From Bacillota bacterium (GTDB lineage Bacteria > Bacillota > Ch66 > Ch109): a DNA stretch of 64,000 nucleotides. Where the stretch lies: NCBI GenBank assembly GCA_050952625.1, contig JBMNLH010000004.1, positions 224,001 to 288,000 on the forward strand, read 5' to 3'. The notes under the pieces were generated by a model. The model did no database searches. It saw nothing but the letters and a program-made list of their open reading frames with translations, and was not told the origin of the DNA. Below, piece after piece: positions 6,558-59,080 of this stretch (positions are counted from its first letter, which is position 1; each line of letters opens with the position of its first letter). The translations under genes were made by a program, and so were the position numbers.

Positions 6558-8216
6558 CATAATAACCTCCATCTCGCTGCAAGGGCAGCGATACAAATAG
6601 TAATGAAAACGGGGGCGCAAATTACCCCGGATTTCGGTAGAATGGGTCTGAGGAGAAGGCAAACTACAAAGCACGGTGAGGTAAGTAGTAGACCGCTCAT
6701 ATTTGACCCAAAACCGTATAATAACCAGTGTAAGGACTGCCTTCCAAGCACAAATGAGTGGTTCTTCGAGACCGTACGCTAATCATTGTTTTAACTCCTT
6801 GTTAAATGTGCGGCAGCCCAGTCACTGCCTTCTCCACACCATTTTTAAGAGGAGGCAGTAGCTTGAAAGTCGTTTACCCAATTTGCTGTGGCGTAGATGT
6901 CCACAAAAAATTTTTCGTTGCCACCATCATCACATCTAAGGGGATTACCCCTCACTACCAGAAGAAACGCTTCTCCACCTTCAACAATTCCATCCTACAA
7001 TTTAAACGCTGGTTGTTGGATAACAATTGTAGAGACGTCTGTATGGAATCTACCGGGAAGTATTGGGTTCCCGTGTTCAATTTATTGGAGGATTCCATCA
7101 ACGTCACCGTTGCCAATCCCAAATGGGTCAAGGCCGTTAAAGGCAACAAGGACGACACCAAAGATTCTAAATGGATCGGCGACCTGTTTCGTCTGGGCCT
7201 TGTACCAGGCAGTTTTATCCCCAATAAATCGATTCGAATTCTGCGCGAGTATACTCGCTACCGGTTTAAACTGATATCTTGTAAATCCAGTGAGAAGAAT
7301 CGTTTCCAAAATGCTTTCACGGTCTGCAATGTAGCCCTTGATGCTGTCGTTTCGGACATGTTTGGCAAATCTGCCTCATCCATCACCGACTACCTTGTAA
7401 ATTCAGATTCTTTTGATCCGCAACACTGCGTATCCCTTCTGAAAAAGTCCCTTAAGAAAAAGGCTGATATAGTAATTGAATCCATTGAGGGATATCAAAT
7501 GATGCCCGAGCAAAAGTTCCGCGTCCGCATGATTCGCAATCACCTGGAATTTATCGAGAAATCTATCAATAAACTGGACGATATGCTTAATATTTTGGCC
7601 TCGCCCTATGAAAGCGCGCTTCAACTTCTTTGTACCATTCCCGGAGTTGACCGCACTTCTGCTATCACGGTCATCTCCGAGATAGGTACTGACATGTCTC
7701 ATTTCTCGTCCTCAAAGAGGCTTTGCTGCTGGGCGGGTCTAACGCCTGGCAACAATGAATCTGCCGGCAAGAAAAAGTCGGTCCGCATCACAAGAGCCGG
7801 GGTTTATCTTAAGCCTGCTCTGGTTCAAGTCGCTCACGCCGCGGTAAAATCCAAGGACAGTCCTTATTACCGTATCAAGTATGAGCGCATTTCCAAGAGA
7901 AGAGGCAAGAAACGAGCCATTATCGCTATCGCCAGGATGATTCTCTCCGCCATTTATCATATGCTTTCGACCGGCGAGATCTTCAATCCATGTGACCTCT
8001 ACAAGGTTGATATGCCTCTGGAACTATGTGATAAACAGAAGGAGAAAGCTTTAAAAAAGGCTGCTAAGCTTCTGATTGCGCAAGGGCTTATTCAGGAAAC
8101 TGACATACCAGGCTTATTGCAACCAGCTTAAATTTTTACTTATAATTCAAGGGGGAAGTGTGCCCTTTTTTAGCTCCCGTCCTTATTGTCCGGTGTTATT
8201 GTTGTTTTCACGCTAA
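6558..8216 (+). mobile_element. IS110-family element (family 1, copy 1)
   Basis: Ends defined by identity with the inverted copy 16336-17996 (CATAATAACC...TTTCACGCTAA). No terminal inverted repeats; ~300-bp upstream non-coding end. Confidence 0.92.
6863..8131 (+). CDS. IS110 DEDD recombinase/transposase
   Basis: CGVDVHK, MESTGKYW, TIPGV, WAGLTP-NESAGK, AIIAIAR. RBS AGGAGG before TTG 6863. Confidence 0.95.
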   Translation: MKVVYPICCGVDVHKKFFVATIITSKGITPHYQKKRFSTFNNSILQFKRWLLDNNCRDVCMESTGKYWVPVFNLLEDSINVTVANPKWVKAVKGNKDDTKDSKWIGDLFRLGLVPGSFIPNKSIRILREYTRYRFKLISCKSSEKNRFQNAFTVCNVALDAVVSDMFGKSASSITDYLVNSDSFDPQHCVSLLKKSLKKKADIVIESIEGYQMMPEQKFRVRMIRNHLEFIEKSINKLDDMLNILASPYESALQLLCTIPGVDRTSAITVISEIGTDMSHFSSSKRLCCWAGLTPGNNESAGKKKSVRITRAGVYLKPALVQVAHAAVKSKDSPYYRIKYERISKRRGKKRAIIAIARMILSAIYHMLSTGEIFNPCDLYKVDMPLELCDKQKEKALKKAAKLLIAQGLIQETDIPGLLQPA

Positions 8217-10108: not shown

Positions 10109-10132
10109 ATGGAAATGGAGGTGCCGCACGAA

Positions 10133-10269
10133 TTCAAGCGGGGACGGTTCTTGACTTGAATTGTCTGCGAAAAATGTTTATAATGTTTGTTTTTTGAATA
10201 GCCTGCCAAGGGAGCAGCCCTGGCAGGTTCTTTGTTTGCAATTCAAGTCAAGAACCGTCCCCACTTGAA
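10133..10269. repeat. REP-like doublet with 31-bp terminal inverted repeats (GGGACGGTTCTTGACTTGAA family)
   Basis: TTCAAGCGGGGACGGTTCTTGACTTGAATTG ... CAATTCAAGTCAAGAACCGTCCCCACTTGAA, with an internal CCTGCC/GGCAGG hairpin. Confidence 0.85.
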
Positions 10270-10344
10270 CGGGCCAATTTTGTAACCATTTACCATTTAA
10301 TTGCATATCATAGTTATATATTACTTAGAAAGGAGGGATTTTAA

Positions 10345-10797
10345 GTGTTAAGAAAATTAAAACTTTTATCAGTTTTCGTAGTCGCTCTGATGTTGATACT
10401 TGCACCGGCTTCAGTAACATGGGCTCAAGACGAACCGGCACAGAACTCCTATGAAGGAGAAGGTTTCCACTTTATATCCGGTGAAAGTTTCCCCACCGAT
10501 ATTCAGGTTGCCGGCTACGATCAAAAGAACCGAACTTACTATCTAAACTACACCCTTCATACCACAAAAGTTGTTAATCCTGGAAGCACCGCTACTTTTA
10601 ATTACGTAATTGAGGTATTTGATGACAATGGTGCTACAATAGGTAGTTTGGGTTCTTTTGAGGAACCTCAACAAGTTGTGGGGGAAGACGGTTCCACAGA
10701 TGCGGTGGTGGAAAATAGTGACATCACCATCGATGAACCAGGGCTTCCGGCCGCTTACCGGGTTGTAGTTACGATTACTGACACACAAGTGAATTAA
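10345..10797 (+). CDS. Secreted hypothetical protein (signal peptide, beta-rich domain)
   Basis: RBS AGGAGG, signal peptide ending VTWA, terminator downstream. Confidence 0.85.
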   Translation: MLRKLKLLSVFVVALMLILAPASVTWAQDEPAQNSYEGEGFHFISGESFPTDIQVAGYDQKNRTYYLNYTLHTTKVVNPGSTATFNYVIEVFDDNGATIGSLGSFEEPQQVVGEDGSTDAVVENSDITIDEPGLPAAYRVVVTITDTQVN

Positions 10798-10802
10798 TTA
10801 TT

Positions 10803-10843
10803 AAAAATACTGGGTGGGTTTTACCCTTTACCCAGTATTTTTT
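10803..10843 (+). terminator. Rho-independent terminator
   Basis: AAAATACTGGGT...ACCCAGTATTTT plus T-tract. Confidence 0.75.
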
Positions 10844-10917
10844 TCAGTTTTCCGGTAGCACCAAACCAGCAAAATCATATGATGGTTTTGAGAAGTGATT
10901 ATAAGGTGGAGATCAGG

Positions 10918-11482
10918 TTGAAAATGTACAGGGCCTTATTAATTCTGATTATTGTTCTCACGTCGATTCTTTTAATTTCCGGGGATTGGGCCCCATGGTT
11001 TATCACAGGATCAAGAAACAAAAAGTGAGCTGCAGCAAGGTCCGGAGCCTATTGAGAACTCCTCTGAGCCCACCTGCGATGATGAGTCACAGAAACCGGA
11101 GGAACTAACTGAAACTAATGTGACAGAACCTATGGAGGAACAACTTGAGGAGGTCGAAACAGAAAATATAAGTTTCCCTACGTCTATCCGGGTAGTCGGC
11201 TATGATTCAAAGCTTAATTATTTATATATTAATTACAGTTTAACAACTACAAAAACTGTTTCTTCTTCAGAAAGAATAGTTTTCAACTATGTAGTTGAGA
11301 TATTTAACGGCAATGATGTACTGATCGGCAGCATAGGTTCTTTTGATTCACCAGAACAAGAAATCGGAATGTTAGGTCAAAACTCGCTAGATATCAGGGA
11401 TAGGAGAATAAATATCCGAACTGATAAACTTCCTGCTGCATACCGCATTGTGATCACTGTAACTGAAACTTATGTAATTTAA
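10918..11482 (+). CDS. Secreted paralog of 10345-10797 (frameshifted 5' part; ORF track 11120-11482)
   Basis: Shares FPT.I.V.GYD.K...NY.L.TTK.V...FNYV.E.F...IGS.GSF...LPAAYR.V.T. Signal peptide MYRALLILIIV at 10924. Confidence 0.7.
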
Positions 11483-11606
11483 GCATAATGTTGTCTTTCA
11501 CCTTACCACCCCCTGATTGCCAAATTTTTACTTTTTTTGAGCTGCACAACTCATAAAGAATGAGGATTATATGCAAGAAAATTTAATTTGTAAAGGAGGT
11601 ATATAA

Positions 11607-12354
11607 GTGTCAACTAACCAAGAAACAAAAGAAATAATTCATAAAAAACCGGTTAAGCGAAAAAAGAGGTTTTTTATATTAGCAACCTTGTTTCTTATTG
11701 CTATCTTTATTCTGCTGCTGTGTCACCATTGTCCTAAACCTACTCCACCGTTGGAAGTTTGGTTCGAAGAATATTTTGAACATGGTCTGGAGGACTGGGA
11801 AAGTCTGGACGCCAAATGGATTGATAATGATGGGGTAGTTCATAATACTTCGGCCCGAGTGGCTAAGGAAGTTTATCTGGCTCCATATCTGGGTTATGAA
11901 TTCAATACTCCAATCCATAATGATCAGATAGTTGTTGAATTTTATACTAAAATAGAGAAAATCACCGGTGCCATGACTCTGGCTTCGCTTGATTTTCCTT
12001 CTGGTGAGATTAGCGCGGTTATAAGTAAAGACGGATACCTCGGAGTGGCTTTTGGGCTGTTTGAGCCTGCCCGGTACAGTACCAAGCGCCCTGACCCCTG
12101 GGGAGTGGCAAAAGGTACAGATCTATGTGAATAATTCAGAAAACAAGTTATCATTACGATATAATGACTCGGAAGTTTTAAACACTCACTGGGCGGGAAC
12201 ACTACCCCTCATGAAAATTTGGCTGGGTTCGGTCTGGATTTACGGTGCAGAAAACTATGTGCCTACTTTGGGGTCTTATTACGACGCAATTCGGGTTGGA
12301 AACCTTGGTTTGTTAGACTCAAAGACCCCAAAATCAAGCAGGGACGGTTCTTGA
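11607..12354 (+). CDS. Membrane-anchored beta-rich (LamG/lectin-like) protein, split by a frameshift near 12085
   Basis: RBS AGGAGG, basic N-terminus plus TM. ORFs 11607-12134 and 12052-12354 join; the last codons derive from the REP. Confidence 0.65.
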
Positions 12355-12456
12355 CTTGAATTGACTGTGAAAAATGTTTACATTATTAGTTTTTTAAATA
12401 GCCTGCCAGGAATGCAGTTTCCGGCAGGTTCTTTGTTCGTTCAAGCAGGGACGGTT
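12334..12456. repeat. Second REP-like element, interrupted by IS110 family 2
   Basis: Homologous to 10133-10240; ends TTCAAGCAGGGACGGTT at the IS boundary. Confidence 0.85.
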
Positions 12457-12577
12457 AGTGTGAAAACAACCATCCCAAGTGATCGAATTACTACTCAAAA
12501 ATTGCAACACAAAATAAGCCCGTAAACATTGATTTTTTTACAGGTAATAGATAACATATAAACAAAGGGCTATTATT

Positions 12578-13754
12578 TTAACGAGGCGATTGAACTGGCA
12601 CTTTTGCCACCATTGGGTCATAGAACTCTCCAGATTTTAGTAGCTTGTAAATTAGCACTAGAATCTTTCTCGCCACTGCAATAATAGCCTTTTTTCTACC
12701 CAATTTACCTTGATGTGTCCAAAACCAGTCATGAAAACTTGATTTGCGTGTACGCACCGCTGCCCATGCAACCTGACATAAAATTGCTTTAATATAAGGA
12801 CTCCCTTTTGTAACTTTACGAGACTTTATATTGCCTGCTGATTCATCATTTCGAGGTGATAATCCAGCCCAAGATACGATCTTCTTAGCACTATCAAAAC
12901 TATCCTGGGGAGTTGCGCTGGTTTCAGCTATAATTGTAAGGGCCGCTGCTATGTCAATGCCGGGTATAGAATCAAGCTGCTCAAGCTGAATTTTATAGGG
13001 TTCAGCTAAATGTTGCATAAGCAGAAGAATATCATTAATCTCACCATCAAGAGTATCAATTTTATCAAGTAAAATTTTGAGATAAGAACGTTCGGAATAG
13101 TCAAGTTTACCAGTAACGGTTGACCGAATCTCTTCCATAGACTTTTTAACACGTCTGTCCATAGCATCACTCACATCAATAGGCGATAAAACACCTTTTT
13201 GAGACAAGGTAGCAAGCAGCCGTCTACCACTTACCCCTAAAATACTGCTTAGAACAGAAGATAGCTTAAACCCATGAGCCTGCAGAAACTTCTCAAGCCT
13301 ATTAGAATAACGAGTACGCTCTGCTACCAAAGTACGACGTAGCCTTGAATATTCTCGTAAATTTCTAATAAGCCTTTCTGGAACAAAACTAGGCTCCAAA
13401 AGACCATGGCGAAGCAAGGTAGCAATCCACTGGGCATCCTTGACATCACTTTTGCGACCGGCCAAATTACGCATATGATGAGCATTCACAACCATTAGAC
13501 ACTTATAACCATCCAAGAACTCTTCACATGCTTCATAAACAGGCCGCCAATAAACACCGGTACTCTCCATAGCAACATTAAAACACTGATTTTCTAAAAG
13601 CCAAGAGCACATCGCTTGCAAATCGGATTGAATAGCTTTAAATTCGGCGTGAATAGAAATAGGCTCTTCATCAGGAGAACCTTTTAAAAATACAGGCATG
13701 AATAACATCCTTGTGCACGTCCAAACCACAGCAACAATCCAGTAAAGCAAGCAT
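12578..13754 (-). CDS. IS110 recombinase (family 2); frameshift near 13688, RBS displaced by IS3
   Basis: MLALLDCCCGLDVHKD, MESTGVYW, GRKSDVKDAQW, SIPGI, WAGLSP-NDESAG, AIIAVARK. Confidence 0.92.
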
Positions 13755-13757
13755 AAC

Positions 13758-15327
13758 CGGCTTGAACCCCTATTATTGGAGAATATACACTTAAAGCTTA
13801 AGCTTACATGAAATATAACGTTTTACCTTGAGCAACCGCCCTTGACATGGGGGCCCCTGGTGTCCGTGTTTCTTAGGGCCGGCCAGGGCCCGCTGCAGCT
13901 AATGCTTTTGCGGCCCTTTGCCAGGGATAGGCTAACACGGACACCCTCCCCATGTAAAGGGTCTTCGATGAACGGTTGCTAGGCGACCATTTTCTTCTCT
14001 GTAATCTGGTTGCTCATAACAGCTTCATAATATTTAGCAGGTGCCATGTACCCTATGCTGCCATGCCGGCGACGATTTGTTGTAATAATCCATGTATTCG
14101 CTGATGACTCTGTATGCATCTGTAAAAGCCTGGTAAACTCATTTCTTGCTATAGCATTCCATCTTCTAATATAGAATGAAAAGGACTCAATATAGGCGTT
14201 CATATTAGGACTTTTAACTGGTATTCTTTCGTGAGTTAATTTCCATTTCCAGCATGTCTCTTCAAATATTTTAGCGGTAAACTGCGGGGCCATTATCAGT
14301 CCTTATTATTGGAAGTTCCATGCCAGGCTTTAAATTGCGTTTATTAAGCGAATTTATAAGTACTGCGCAGGGCATCCTTAGCTGTAGCACTTAATCCAAG
14401 GTGATAGTCAATTACTGAACGGTCAAACACGTCTATAAGGGATAATTGGAAGAAGAACCTGCTCATACCCTCAATGTAACCATACTTCAGGTCCATTTGC
14501 CATGTGTTGGTTAGGGGCAGTTACTTCATCTCGCTTTGCCAGTTTTCCTCGGCCGGTCTAGATATATTTTTCTCTGAGGACGCAATACGTTAAGTTCTTT
14601 ACAGAGCCGGTATGTTTTCTTATGGTTTATGATAAGCTGGTAATCCTCTTTCAGGGTTGCGTTGATTTTTTTATAGCCATAAGGGAAACCATCCCCGGTA
14701 ACTATCTCTTTAATATATTCCTTAATTAATTCGTCAGAGATTTGCTCACCTTCTAGATTTTAATGAGTACTCTGATATCTTGCGCCCCGGTTTCTTCTTT
14801 GGTAGTTCCTGGTTAATAGCACTTATAGTTTCTTTGATTTTATGATAGTAGGTGGATGAAGCCAAGCCGACAGAGCTAAGGACCAGAGAAGCTTTATAGC
14901 CCTTATCTATCCACCTTTTAGCTATGGTAACACCTGTCGGCTACCGAGGGTTTTGGATATCCCTTAATCTCTCTTAAAATAGCCAACTCTAATTCTTTAT
15001 CAGCCAGAAGGCGTTTTAGCCTGTCATTCTCAGTACTAACTTCTTTAAGCTGTTTTTCCAGAGCTTTTTGGCGGTCATCTTTAACTTTAGGCAGTCTCTT
15101 TATGGAGCCGTTTTTTTCGATATTTACTTAACCAAGTATGAATTGTATTAGCCGACATTTTCATGCCTGCGAGCTACCAAGGCAACGTTACCTGTTTCCT
15201 GGCACTCTTTTATAATTAATTCCTTGAATTCATCGCTGTATTGCTTGCTTTTCATGAAAATCTACCCCCTACTATTATGTTAACGTATTACACGTGCTTT
15301 CTCCAAATTTATTAGGGGGCTAGATAG
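13758..15327 (-). mobile_element. IS3-family element with 4-bp target duplication TAAC
   Basis: Imperfect IRs (CCCCTA...TTGGAGAA at both ends). TAAC at 13754-13757 and 15328-15331. Confidence 0.85.
13979..15255 (-). pseudogene. IS3 transposase orfA/orfB with multiple frameshifts
   Basis: orfA MKSKQYSDEFKELIIKECQETGNVALVARRHE. orfB YGYKKI, WQMDLKY, HERIPVKSPNMNAYIESF, RRHGSIGYMAP. Confidence 0.88.
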
Positions 15328-15331
15328 TAAC

Positions 15332-15510
15332 GACACCTCCGAAGATAATAATGCAGGGAACAATTGTCTGATAAAAATTGAAGTTTAGTGTCCGTGGTCA
15401 CCGTCAATGTGCCACAATTCTCTGTACTCAAAGGACAATTTAGTCATGTTCTAAAACCGGGGTATAAAGTCTCCCCAAACCGTCCCTCGACCTTACCCTG
15501 CAGTACCATT
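15332..15510 (-). ncRNA. Putative IS110 bridge RNA region (family 2)
   Basis: Contains AGGGACGGTT (target flank) and ACACTAA (donor end) next to hairpins; TATAAT just upstream. Confidence 0.6.
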
Positions 15511-15676
15511 ATATAATGTCGTTATTTCCCGGGAAGCCCTTTGTATCTGCTTTGGCCAGTTTTTCAATCCATTCTCCTGTGTCAAGCATTGTCATGGATG
15601 TTCTCCTGGTTGTAATTATAGGTAAAAAGTGAAAAGTTGGTATCGTAATAAGTGGTATAAGCTTCGGTGCCAGGCA

Positions 15677-15850
15677 GTGCGCGCCCGAGCAAGGTCGTTT
15701 CATATAGTGGGTGGGAAGCCTACTGGATAAGGTAGACCAACCATCCGTAGTTAGCCTTGGAGCTTATCAGGTAACTGGTAAGTTTTAAGCGTAGGCAAAC
15801 AGGGTAGCAGGCTGAAAGCTGAAAAGCTGAAGTGATTGAGCCACGTAATG
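15677..15850 (+). ncRNA. Group II intron 5' (domain I) fragment
   Basis: Starts GTGCGCGCCCGAGCAAGG; TTTTAAGCGTAGGCA and GATTGAGCC...AAT domain-I-like blocks. No RT ORF or domain V. Confidence 0.55.
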
Positions 15851-16335
15851 CTTCGGTGCCTGACATGAACTTATTAAGTTATTCAATATTCAGATAATTA
15901 TCAATAAAAGTACGGCTATTATATGCTATTACATAAGCTACATTATCGGAATTTAAAGAGTTCATGCAAAAGAAGAATGGCAGGTGCCTGACCCCAAGTT
16001 ATTTAAATAAAGACCAATCCAGATGTTCTAGGGGTTGGGAAACATAACATGTATTATCAGAATAAACCTAGTTGTTGAGATAAATTCATGGTAGAGTGGC
16101 AAGGGGCCATTTCGTTTTCGCATTTAATAAAAAGAGCTTGTTTAAGGCTAGCGTAATCACTTTACAAGGACCCCTGGTGCCTGCCACCAACTTATCAACT
16201 TATCAACTTATTAAATATTATGACAATTTGGGACTGGGTGTAGGAATTATTAGAAGCAAAAGGTGCTTAGGGGTTTATGCCAGGGATTGATTTAATAGCG
16301 ATGAAAAAAGCCATAAATATTGGAGGCTGATGGTA

Positions 16336-17996
16336 TTAGCGTGAAAACAACAATAACACCGGACAATAAGGACGGGAGCTAAAAAAGGGCACACTTCCCC
16401 CTTGAATTATAAGTAAAAATTTAAGCTGGTTGCAATAAGCCTGGTATGTCAGTTTCCTGAATAAGCCCTTGCGCAATCAGAAGCTTAGCAGCCTTTTTTA
16501 AAGCTTTCTCCTTCTGTTTATCACATAGTTCCAGAGGCATATCAACCTTGTAGAGGTCACATGGATTGAAGATCTCGCCGGTCGAAAGCATATGATAAAT
16601 GGCGGAGAGAATCATCCTGGCGATAGCGATAATGGCTCGTTTCTTGCCTCTTCTCTTGGAAATGCGCTCATACTTGATACGGTAATAAGGACTGTCCTTG
16701 GATTTTACCGCGGCGTGAGCGACTTGAACCAGAGCAGGCTTAAGATAAACCCCGGCTCTTGTGATGCGGACCGACTTTTTCTTGCCGGCAGATTCATTGT
16801 TGCCAGGCGTTAGACCCGCCCAGCAGCAAAGCCTCTTTGAGGACGAGAAATGAGACATGTCAGTACCTATCTCGGAGATGACCGTGATAGCAGAAGTGCG
16901 GTCAACTCCGGGAATGGTACAAAGAAGTTGAAGCGCGCTTTCATAGGGCGAGGCCAAAATATTAAGCATATCGTCCAGTTTATTGATAGATTTCTCGATA
17001 AATTCCAGGTGATTGCGAATCATGCGGACGCGGAACTTTTGCTCGGGCATCATTTGATATCCCTCAATGGATTCAATTACTATATCAGCCTTTTTCTTAA
17101 GGGACTTTTTCAGAAGGGATACGCAGTGTTGCGGATCAAAAGAATCTGAATTTACAAGGTAGTCGGTGATGGATGAGGCAGATTTGCCAAACATGTCCGA
17201 AACGACAGCATCAAGGGCTACATTGCAGACCGTGAAAGCATTTTGGAAACGATTCTTCTCACTGGATTTACAAGATATCAGTTTAAACCGGTAGCGAGTA
17301 TACTCGCGCAGAATTCGAATCGATTTATTGGGGATAAAACTGCCTGGTACAAGGCCCAGACGAAACAGGTCGCCGATCCATTTAGAATCTTTGGTGTCGT
17401 CCTTGTTGCCTTTAACGGCCTTGACCCATTTGGGATTGGCAACGGTGACGTTGATGGAATCCTCCAATAAATTGAACACGGGAACCCAATACTTCCCGGT
17501 AGATTCCATACAGACGTCTCTACAATTGTTATCCAACAACCAGCGTTTAAATTGTAGGATGGAATTGTTGAAGGTGGAGAAGCGTTTCTTCTGGTAGTGA
17601 GGGGTAATCCCCTTAGATGTGATGATGGTGGCAACGAAAAATTTTTTGTGGACATCTACGCCACAGCAAATTGGGGTAAACGACTTTCAAGCTACTGCCT
17701 CCTCTTAAAAATGGTGTGGAGAAGGCAGTGACTGGGCTGCCGCACATTTAACAAGGAGTTAAAACAATGATTAGCGTACGGTCTCGAAGAACCCACTCAT
17801 TTGTGCTTGGAAGGCAGTCCTTACACTGGTTATTATACGGTTTTGGGTCAAATATGAGCGGTCTACTACTTACCTCACCGTGCTTTGTAGTTTGCCTTCT
17901 CCTCAGACCCATTCTACCGAAATCCGGGGTAATTTGCGCCCCCGTTTTCATTACTATTTGTATCGCTGCCCTTGCAGCGAGATGGAGGTTATTATG
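16336..17996 (-). mobile_element. IS110-family element (family 1, copy 2)
   Basis: Reverse complement of 6558-8216, with two single-base homopolymer differences seen. Confidence 0.92.
16421..17690 (-). CDS. IS110 recombinase (copy 2; +1 base near 17674)
   Basis: Protein identical to copy 1 downstream of the frameshift. Confidence 0.92.
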
Positions 17997-28396: not shown

Positions 28397-28449
28397 AAAA
28401 AAAGGATTTTTCTGATTGGTGGAGAATAGTATTTTATAGAAAACTTAAT

Positions 28450-28595
28450 AAACGGCAAACAGACAGGGAAGCCGGTGAAAATCCGGCGCGGTCGCGCCAC
28501 TGTCAGGAGGAGCGATCTCACATTAGGCCACTGGGTAACACCTGGGAAGGCGTGGGAGAGCGGTGAATCCGAGCCAGGATATCTGTTGTTTGTTG
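28450..28595 (+). promoter_or_regulatory. Cobalamin riboswitch
   Basis: AGGGAAgccGGTGAAAATCCggcGCGGtcgCGCCACTGT...GCCACTGG...GGGAAGG...GAGCCAGGA; terminator-like hairpin at 28659-28698. Confidence 0.93.
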
Positions 28596-28850
28596 ATAAA
28601 CGTTTTACGTAAACGTTAAGCTCCCTACGCAGGATGGGGTAGTTATGATCCTAGTTATGACCCCTTGTTCTTTTTTGGAGCAGGGGTATTTGTTTTTTCA
28701 GGGCATGTATTTCGCGATGTAGGCAGGCTTAAGTCTGCCTATTTTTTACATAATCAGAAAGTATAAGTGACTTTCTGATTATAAGTAAGGGCAACTAGGG
28801 CTTACGCCTGCACCAAGGGCTTGGCGTAAGCCAAGTTTTCTTTATTTACT

Positions 28851-39947: not shown

Positions 39948-40217
39948 TAGTCGTGCTAGGCGGGGAGGTAGCGGTGCCCTGTTCCCGCAAACCGCTATAG
40001 CGGGGCTGAATTCCCACCCGAGGGTTTATCTTGTGGGGTCCGGCAGGCGTAAGTGGTGAGGACTTTTGGGTCCCACGCAACTGGAACTCCTGAACCGTGT
40101 CAGGTCCGGAAGGAAGCAGCACTAAGGGAACCCTTCAGTGTGCCGTGGGGCAGCCTGGAAAGAGCTAACTGCGTCTGTAACGCCCGGAAGGTTAATTCGG
40201 AGGTGGGTGCACGACTA
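39948..40217 (+). ncRNA. ffs: Large bacterial SRP RNA (scRNA)
   Basis: TCAGGTCCGGAAGGAAGCAGC, Alu-like 5' GGGGAGGTAGCGGTGCCCTG, terminal stem TAGTCGTGC/GCACGACTA; upstream of dnaX. Confidence 0.96.
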
Positions 40218-58719: not shown

Positions 58720-58789
58720 TCGATGGGTACTTGCATTTAACGCGAATGATGTGTAAACTATAACAATCAATAGAAAAAATGGATAGTGC

Positions 58790-59080
58790 ATCAGCGATGA
58801 AAGAAAGGTAGGCCAGTTAGTACCGGTCCAGAGAACGGGGGCAGGTGGAAACCCGTCCGGTAGGTGGCTGAATATGGCTCTGGAGCTGCTTGGCTGAAGA
58901 CGTGATCAATCGGATAATTATCTTTGATGCGGGAAGTAGGCCAAGCCGGTGGGCGGACCGTTATTCCGCTGCAGTCAAGGCAGACTGATAGAGGTTTTGA
59001 CCGTGAGGTTAAGACAAAACAGGGTGGTACCGCGAGAGACTTCTCGCCCCTGCCAAGGGGTAAGAGGTCTTTTTATTTTG
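58790..59080 (+). promoter_or_regulatory. T-box riboswitch (Met)
   Basis: GCGATGAAAG, AGAGA, GGTGGAA stem I motifs; specifier GAATATGG; T-box AACAGGGTGGTACCGCG; terminator. Confidence 0.92.

Follow-up and report, generated by a model that had tools for sequence, protein, structure and literature searches.

A disabled IS110-family insertion sequence of a Bacillota bacterium that probably encodes a bridge RNA aimed at a REP-like repeat, with loop strands in swapped roles

Several described insertion sequences (IS) pair a recombinase with a guide RNA. In IS621 of Escherichia coli, a member of the IS110 group with a DEDD/serine recombinase, the long end that precedes the gene encodes a bridge RNA with a target loop and a donor loop, both internal. 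In each of them, 8 to 9 nucleotides (nt) of the 5′ strand pair with the bottom strand on the left, and 4 to 7 nt of the 3′ strand, followed by handshake letters, with the top strand on the right; both strands of a loop read a 2-nt core, and the target is a repetitive extragenic palindromic (REP) sequence (PMC11208160, PMC11208158). ISEc21, of the IS110 type, has a seekRNA in its upstream noncoding region with short matches to both target strands, the bottom-strand match coming first, whereas IS1111-type seekRNAs have the top-strand complement first and lie downstream of the gene (PMC11187229). We analyzed a 64,000-nt stretch of DNA from a Bacillota bacterium (contig JBMNLH010000004.1, positions 224,001 to 288,000; hereafter the window), which holds an IS110-family element at 12457-15600 on the minus strand. 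In our judgment this element is very probably a disabled RNA-guided insertion sequence with a bridge RNA that would target a REP-like repeat, the strands of its loops having swapped roles relative to those of IS621 and ISEc21.

To delimit the element we used copies in other genomes. A scan of one genome per species yielded 60 related loci (referred to by numbers such as L001), and 10 near-identical copies among them, with ends 97 to 98% identical to the window's, set the limits: the block that they share runs exactly from CATCC... to ...CACACT. The left end starts with CATCCATGAC at window position 15600, the right end finishes with ...TTTTCACACT at 12457, and in the compared copies an AA core stands before the left end (15602-15601) and after the right end (12456-12455). 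An earlier note on this DNA had put the left boundary at 15526; the copies move it 74 nt further out, to 15600, with AA at 15601-15602 and the downstream end at 12457. The AA/TT core that the note had proposed was borne out, as AA flanks both ends. As is typical of the IS110 family, the junctions show no long terminal inverted repeats and only the 2-nt core is duplicated on both sides. A BLAST search against its own genome found the element in single copy. The IS110 domains are encoded at 12578-13750 on the minus strand (Pfam DEDD_Tnp_IS110 and Transposase_20, E values 2.3e-23 and 9.6e-19), and the intact 391-aa protein of a relative, in which GLDVHKD and NDESAG are visible, scored 254.6 bits on NCBIfam model NF033542 (cut-off 140). 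The noncoding ends measure 273 nt upstream of the recombinase gene and about 120 nt downstream. The coordinates of all features are collected in Table 1.

Table 1. Positions in the window of the element, its predicted RNA and its insertion site
Feature	Positions	Strand	Basis or remark
Whole IS110-family element, interrupted by an IS3-like insertion	12457..15600	-	Comparison with 10 near-identical copies
Right end	12457..12467	-	GTTTTCA sub-terminal inverted-repeat copy (12467-12461) overlapping CACACT (12462-12457)
Recombinase gene, DEDD_Tnp_IS110 + Transposase_20	12578..13754	-	One extra T in run 13686-13690 relative to the intact 391-aa relative
IS3-like insertion	13758..15327	-	4-bp duplication TAAC at 13754-13757 and 15328-15331
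Predicted bridge RNA, about 160 nt: outer helix P1, first (target) loop, second (donor) loop	15347..15507	-	Covariance model, 162 bits
TATAAT box directly upstream of the RNA	15508..15513	-	Conserved in homologues; L013 reads TATTAT
First loop, 5′ strand AGGGACGGUU, putative guide to core + right flank	15478..15487	-	Internal loop
First-loop distal hairpin, UGGGG...CCCCGG	15457..15477	-	GGGG/CCCC versus GGAG/CUCC
First loop, 3′ strand UUUUAGAACAU	15446..15456	-	AG+AA, sense of left flank + core; CAU, first letters of the left end
Second loop, 5′ strand UACAGAGAAUUGU	15414..15426	-	Without left-end complement; same sense as 15569-15582
Second loop, 3′ strand GACACUAAAC	15383..15392	-	Same sense as right end CACACT + AA
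Conserved left terminus	15559..15600	-	CATCCATGAC; internal echo ACACAGGAGAATGG (15582-15569); inverted-repeat copy (TGAAAAC in relatives)
Left junction	15601..15612	-	Core AA + flank; plus strand reads TTCTCCTGGTTG, right half of a different REP unit
Right target flank, half of a REP-like repeat	12447..12456	-	Core AA (12456-12455) + CCGTCCCT
Intact unoccupied REP unit, TCAAGC AGGGACGGTT CTTGA	12334..12354	+	107 nt from the occupied unit

The upstream noncoding end appears to fold into a conserved RNA. RNAalifold analysis of nine left ends, taken from elements with recombinases of 99% to 67% protein identity to the window's, yielded an outer helix (P1), two internal loops and distal stems, with nine base pairs changed on both sides. 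An invariant AGGGACGGTT forms the 5′ strand of the first internal loop, the distal stem of which covaries (GGGG/CCCC versus GGAG/CUCC), and the second internal loop likewise has a covarying distal stem. With a covariance model built from that alignment, the RNA could be traced upstream of recombinases with as little as about 35% identity. Among 25 distinct rows fitted to this model, 95% of the cells were paired, compared with 37 to 45% when the partners were slid, 34 of the 38 pairs changed on both sides, and none of 500 shuffles reached the observed values; because the rows were fitted to the model, the method itself favors the structure. Several invariant G-U pairs, together with the conserved TATAAT just upstream, suggest that the RNA is on the sense strand of the element. 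When the window copy is folded by itself for minimum energy, the 10-mer pairs with AAUUGUCCUUU, a pairing that the alignment fold rules out. An Rfam search of the element stretch found no bridge-RNA family, a group II intron fragment being the sole match close to the element. Judged from these alignments, this is a real bridge RNA of a known kind in a variant layout, its strand order being that published for the IS1111 type and its position being upstream of the gene.

The guide candidate is a 10-mer found both beside the element and within its upstream end, as the earlier note had observed. AGGGACGGTT occupies 12447-12456 of the plus strand, and its reverse complement AACCGTCCCT lies at 15478-15487 of the same strand, followed by TGGGGAGACTTTATACCCCGG; read in the sense of the element, the latter is again AGGGACGGTT, directly before the GGGG/CCCC hairpin. 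The chance of finding a given 10-mer in reverse complement within the 273-nt end is about 264/4^10 = 2.5e-4. The host motif is indeed a repeat, with 27 exact copies of the 10-mer in the genome against about 5.5 expected, most of them in the form aaccRG-AGGGACGGTT-CTT-CYGGtt. The 9-mer occurs 85 times, and AGAACCGTCCC 59 times against about 1.4 expected. Inverted repeats of at least 5 bp flank 34 of the 85 copies of the 9-mer, compared with 183 of 2000 random places, which makes the motif a REP-like hairpin with a conserved loop. The insertion point, in the sense of the element ...AG AA/CCGTCCC, falls inside that loop.

The sites occupied by relatives match this motif closely. Eighteen insertions have both the guide and a visible right junction (the window's, L001 to L011, L015 to L019, and L021), and they are spread over at least seven different genomes with dissimilar outer flanks. 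Letters 1 to 8 of the right flank read AACCGTCC in 16 of them, with a single mismatch in L006 and an extra A in L016; thus, when homologous ends were aligned with their flanks, as the earlier note had proposed, all 18 abutted this motif, exactly or with a 1-nt change. Letter 9 is C with the sole exception of L004, and letter 10 is C in 13, T in 4 and G in 1. The first-loop 5′ strand is complementary to the core and the right flank over 9 to 10 letters in these sites, in agreement with the claim that the long guide matches the right-hand flank. The claim of a 10-nt guide was accurate for the window copy, where the match is exactly 10, but pairing usually spans 9 nt, given the T at letter 10 of some sites. 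The left flank is loosely conserved (G AA in almost every site, AG AA in roughly half), and in several sites (L001, L006, L021, and L018) both arms of one hairpin straddle the element. Since this 10-mer of a conserved, folded RNA matches the repeat beside which the relatives always sit, it would be a natural target guide. Its position in an internal loop between covarying helices supports the proposal of the note that a bridge RNA is programmed against the GGGACGGTT repeat.

A relative with a different guide, L042, allows the guide and flank to be compared in another sequence. The 15-mer flank predicted for it is present with two substitutions; its first-loop 5′ strand pairs with the flank at 8 of 10 letters plus one wobble, and its left flank, GTTTTT-AA-AC, equals its 3′ strand, UUUUU-AA-AC, over 10 letters. 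In general, the first-loop 3′ strand repeats the left flank, AA and the two or three letters with which the element begins. The match to the left flank is weak in the window copy (AG-AA-CAU). In subfamily D, the left flanks of all eight copies of G127 read AAAT-AA-CC, as in their first-loop 3′ strand, and between G006 and G066 this strand and the left flank differ in step. It seems that specificity rests mainly on one first-loop strand or the other depending on the element, and on the 5′ strand in the window's element.

In the second loop, the 3′ strand copies, in the same sense, the final five letters of the element together with AA, and strand and right end covary in at least seven element types. 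ACACU goes with right end CACACT and ACAUU with CACATT; ACAAU, ACGCA and ACAGU each match their own right end, and AUAGU goes with CATAGT. A copy on a Bacillus thuringiensis plasmid has ACAG with CACAG, and GUACU, GUGCU and GUGUU match the right ends in subfamily D. The 5′ strand of this loop behaves differently, repeating in the same sense a segment 19 to 32 nt inside the left end, which we call the echo. The echo changes in step with the second-loop 5′ strand across the types, reading ACAG(G)AGAA in the window's group, GCACACA.GC in L016 to L018, GCACCACCAT in L042 (10 of 10 letters), CACAGC in L057 and GCACA(G/A)CCAAT in subfamily D. It directly precedes TGAAAAC, an inverted repeat that covaries with GTTTTCA of the right end; this sub-terminal repeat is 7 to 9 bp long (GGGTTCA/TGAACCC in L016 to L018, GTTTCA/TGAAAC in L042), and its left copy lies about 33 nt inside the end. 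A pairing of the second-loop 5′ strand with letters 9 to 20 of the left end was considered and dropped, being present in L001 only and without covariation in L009 or L013.

Left ends compared across the clade (window 15559-15600, L001:2169-2210, L042, L016 to L018, and L071 to L081) share a conserved terminus box, CAxCCATG, followed in order by a spacer or small hairpin, the echo and the inverted-repeat copy, with the echo and the repeat covarying. The small hairpin between terminus and echo covaries in subfamily D. The left flanks of the window copy and of L008 end in CAGGAGAA, like the echo; in L008 (1-54), the 14 letters beside the left end are identical to letters 15 to 28 of the element's own left end and make up one arm of a larger palindrome in that contig. 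We rejected as a gene candidate the small open reading frame that runs from 15597 downwards: it lies within the element, lacks conservation and is disrupted by indels in relatives.

Compared with IS621, the element shares the type of recombinase, an RNA encoded upstream of the gene, two internal loops for target and donor, a 2-nt core read by both strands of a loop, handshake letters after the 3′ strand and a REP as target (PMC11208160, PMC11208158). The two differ in their strands: in each IS621 loop, the 5′ strand reads in the same sense as either the left flank or the right end, and the 3′ strand is complementary to either the right flank or the left end, whereas the studied element has the reverse. 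Moreover, the core is CT in IS621 and AA here, the 391-aa recombinase matches that of IS621 only over residues 256 to 379 (E value 3.5e-8), and the studied element has the covarying sub-terminal inverted repeat of 7 to 9 bp and no left-end pairing that we could find. With ISEc21, it shares the upstream noncoding region and the short matches to both target strands (PMC11187229), but the top-strand complement comes first here, and the proteins align over 142 residues only, with 23% identity. The order is thus reversed in both loops relative to the IS110-group layout. As a control, we subjected ISEc21 (L061, coordinates from PMC11187229) to the same analysis and obtained left-flank and right-end copies 5′ of the right-flank and left-end complements, as published.

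With the IS1111 type (ISEc11, ISPa11, and IS4321), the element has in common the top-strand complement 5′ of the bottom-strand match and, for ISPa11, a REP target (PMC11187229). It may also share the sub-terminal inverted repeats, which are 7 to 17 bp in the IS1111 group and 7 to 9 bp here, although the left copy is set about 33 nt inside the end. The earlier note was right that the layout may differ from that of IS621, although this order is the one published for IS1111-type seekRNAs (PMC11187229). The IS1111 type differs in having its long noncoding region downstream of the gene and transposases of 330 to 350 aa (PMC11187229), against 273 nt upstream, about 120 nt downstream and 391 aa in the studied element. 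By protein, recombinases of the clade, those of L030 and L018 for instance, lie at roughly the same distance from ISEc21 as from IS4321 (plasmid R751), with 22 to 29% identity over partial lengths. The L001 protein gave no alignment to IS4321 among the matches listed, whereas its relatives are 22 to 27% identical to IS4321, and a plasmid search with ISEc21 as the query found no named IS1111-type relatives among the best 40 of 2072 matches. ISPpu9 and ISPpu10 of Pseudomonas putida are likewise IS110-family elements that insert into REP or one conserved intergenic repeat; they belong to another phylum, and we liken them by description only.

Taken together, these matches suggest the following mechanism. 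An RNA of about 160 nt (15507-15347) would be transcribed behind the TATAAT box from the 273-nt upstream end. The first-loop 5′ strand AGGGACGGUU would pair with the sense strand of the target, i.e., the core AA plus 7 to 8 letters to its right (AACCGTCCC(T)), and the 3′ strand UAG-AA-CAU with the opposite strand of the core and of 1 to 2 letters to its left, before running on into two or three handshake letters equal to the first letters of the element. In the second loop, the 3′ strand ACACU-AA would pair with the opposite strand of the right end and the core. The recombinase would then exchange strands at AA, and the element would land in the loop of the REP-like hairpin as ...AG AA (element) AA CCGTCCC. 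By symmetry, the swapped roles could correspond to an RNA-plus-gene cassette that is inverted relative to the recombination sites.

A further idea, possible but in our view doubtful, is that these elements represent a third architecture between IS110 and IS1111, with an upstream RNA, IS1111 polarity and sub-terminal repeats, in which both donor guides have the same sense, one for the right end and the other for a site displaced to about 20 nt within the left end, adjacent to the inverted repeat. Such a same-sense donor geometry with a displaced left site would be one not described for IS621. The clade in question lies in Bacillota and includes copies on plasmids of B. thuringiensis and Enterococcus faecalis as well as a second element in the window.

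Several observations weigh against the RNA-guided, swapped-strand reading. All 18 sites share one guide, so that covariation of the first-loop 5′ strand rests on L042 (n = 1) and the B. thuringiensis plasmid copy, and in the latter this strand matches the flank only partly, at about 7 of 9 letters with a 1-nt shift. In group C it matches the flanks at about 5 to 7 of 9 letters and needs a 2-nt shift of register. In subfamily D it matches at AAAAT in two of the eight copies of G127, and nothing past the core in any of the four copies of G066 and G006. The partial matches in groups C and D and in the two plasmid copies were counted by eye and do not represent a pooled score of cognate versus noncognate pairs. 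The second-loop 5′ strand showed no pairing with the left end, and one of the four expected guide-DNA pairings is therefore missing. The left flank of the window copy is not the other half of the same REP unit. Finally, transcription of the RNA, RNA-DNA pairing, recombination at AA and a circular intermediate are all steps that we infer from sequence.

The poor fit of the equivalent strand in subfamilies C and D, and the constancy of the guide across the 18 sites, which leaves RNA pairing and mere conservation together, would also suit a match that is real but acts at the level of DNA or protein, as a captured piece of the target or a protein-binding site, with the recombinase itself recognizing AACCGTCCC. 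We consider this unlikely, however, as the 10-mer sits exactly in a loop 5′ strand between covarying helices, as guides do in bridge RNAs (PMC11208160), L042 changes guide and flank together, and the neighboring strands covary with the left flank and the right end. Less likely still is that the layout is canonical, as in IS621, and that we mistook the strand of the RNA or the orientation of the element. The roles were inferred from sequence only, and the second-loop 5′ strand, in having the sense of a left-end segment ending in AA, superficially resembles a left-donor guide. However, several invariant G-U pairs of the sense strand would become A-C if the other strand were read, the TATAAT box has the sense orientation, the right-end copy is on the 3′ strand in every type examined, and the ISEc21 control recovers the published canonical order.

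The two 10-mers form an exact inverted pair and the host repeats are hairpins, which raises the alternative that the inner 10-mer is merely the other arm of a palindromic repeat and that the element ends at 15477, centered in AGGGACGGTT/AACCGTCCCT. The comparison of copies refutes this explanation, to which we give practically no credence. It needs empty sites reading AGGGACGGTTAACCGTCCCT, whereas host repeats read AGGGACGGTT-CTT-stem and not a perfect 20-nt palindrome; the 123 nt past the inner 10-mer (15488-15600) are common to all copies elsewhere, and the 10-mer is invariant inside the elements whatever their flanks.

The window copy is interrupted by the IS3-like insert, a 1.57-kb sequence present in three copies in the genome, the comparison of which placed its limits. 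Lying at 13758-15327, it cuts off the GGAGG ribosome-binding site, the RNA and the promoter from the ATG at 13754. Without the insert, the window copy differs from L001, which has an intact 391-aa recombinase, at 7 positions in 1566. At 15564-15566 there are two extra letters (15565-15566) and one substitution, altering the left inverted repeat; a substitution at 15471 lies in the hairpin loop, an extra C at 15434 within an RNA helix, and another substitution at 13462, and an extra T at 13690 in a run of T breaks the frame of the recombinase. Contigs from four RNA libraries (four studies) were all free of the insert, each of the 4 runs having the joint 13753>15328; the extra T is missing from them, and at 13462 and 15471 they agree with L001. 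They showed neither a junction of right end with left end nor informative ends of a transcript, features that contigs are unable to reveal and that thus count neither for nor against a circle or a transcript. The RNA-library contigs also drop many single letters (at least 12) inside the IS3-like insert relative to the window copy. Since the indels of the window copy are all changes of length in short single-letter runs, and in view of these dropped letters, they may be assembly errors rather than mutations. The IS3-like insertion itself is structural and real. Its three copies are 98 to 99% identical, and the one in the window has a broken reading frame; the letters dropped by the contigs point either to decay of this copy or to homopolymer indel errors in the assembly.

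The insertion site appears to have changed since the element arrived. The right end in the window adjoins GTTCAAGC-AGGGACGG, and the left end adjoins TT-CTCCTGGTTG, which fits the right half of another repeat unit. With flanks from two different units, the site must have been rearranged after insertion, and a deletion by recombination between two same-orientation copies would be the simplest history. A paralogous unit composed of a REP hairpin, a terminator-like hairpin and a second REP occurs twice, at 10131-10270 and 12331-12456; the two REPs are inverted in the first, and in the second unit the second REP is direct and occupied by the element. Two close relatives, metagenome-assembled genomes with L012 and L007, are 99.7 to 100% identical to the window's flanks (compared with window 10250-12331) and have the element in repeat units whose counterparts in the window, at about 10131-10160 and at 10249/10250, are empty; one of these genomes has eight intact copies. 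The presence of the element at other REP units in such close relatives indicates recent activity in the lineage, the window genome keeping one interrupted copy.

The region is a nest of mobile DNA. A second IS110-family element, at 6558-8216 (plus strand) and 16336-17996 (minus strand), brackets about 8 kb including the studied element, its two copies being inverted and 99.9% identical. The proteins of the two elements share 34% identity. The right end of the second element reads ...GTTTTCACGCT directly before AA and its upstream region holds ACGCUAA, a correspondence that points to the same plan as in the studied element. A 5′ fragment of a group II intron at 15679-16335 (plus strand; Rfam D1-D4, 51.4 bits) starts with GTGCG and is truncated at 16336 by the second IS110 element; the window showed no further part of the intron. 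The window also contains a cobalamin riboswitch, a large signal recognition particle RNA and a T-box leader, at 28407-28604, 39951-40214 and 58788-59054, respectively, all ordinary features.

An IS110 element with a REP-targeting bridge RNA is already a known kind. In the literature considered, supplements aside, we found no IS110-type RNA with swapped strand order, the only related statement being that of PMC11187229 on IS1111 versus IS110, and no description of an upstream RNA with swapped order, of the covarying sub-terminal repeat or of the echo. The swapped layout may already be on record in those supplements or among the 86 bridge-RNA models of a 2026 preprint (10.64898/2026.10.21.760802), many of them departing in structure from IS621. 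In the context of this genome, the finding is an ordinary one, a single disabled insertion sequence among mobile elements, beside 59 unoccupied perfect target sites. Bridge RNAs serve as programmable recombination tools, the design rules of which come almost wholly from IS621. If our reading is true, here is a natural system with a 9- to 10-nt target guide that reads the flank on the far side of the element. Its loop strands would have swapped roles, and one donor strand seemingly reads an internal site; such a system would widen these design rules and would be relevant to the question of how the IS110 and IS1111 layouts gave rise to one another.

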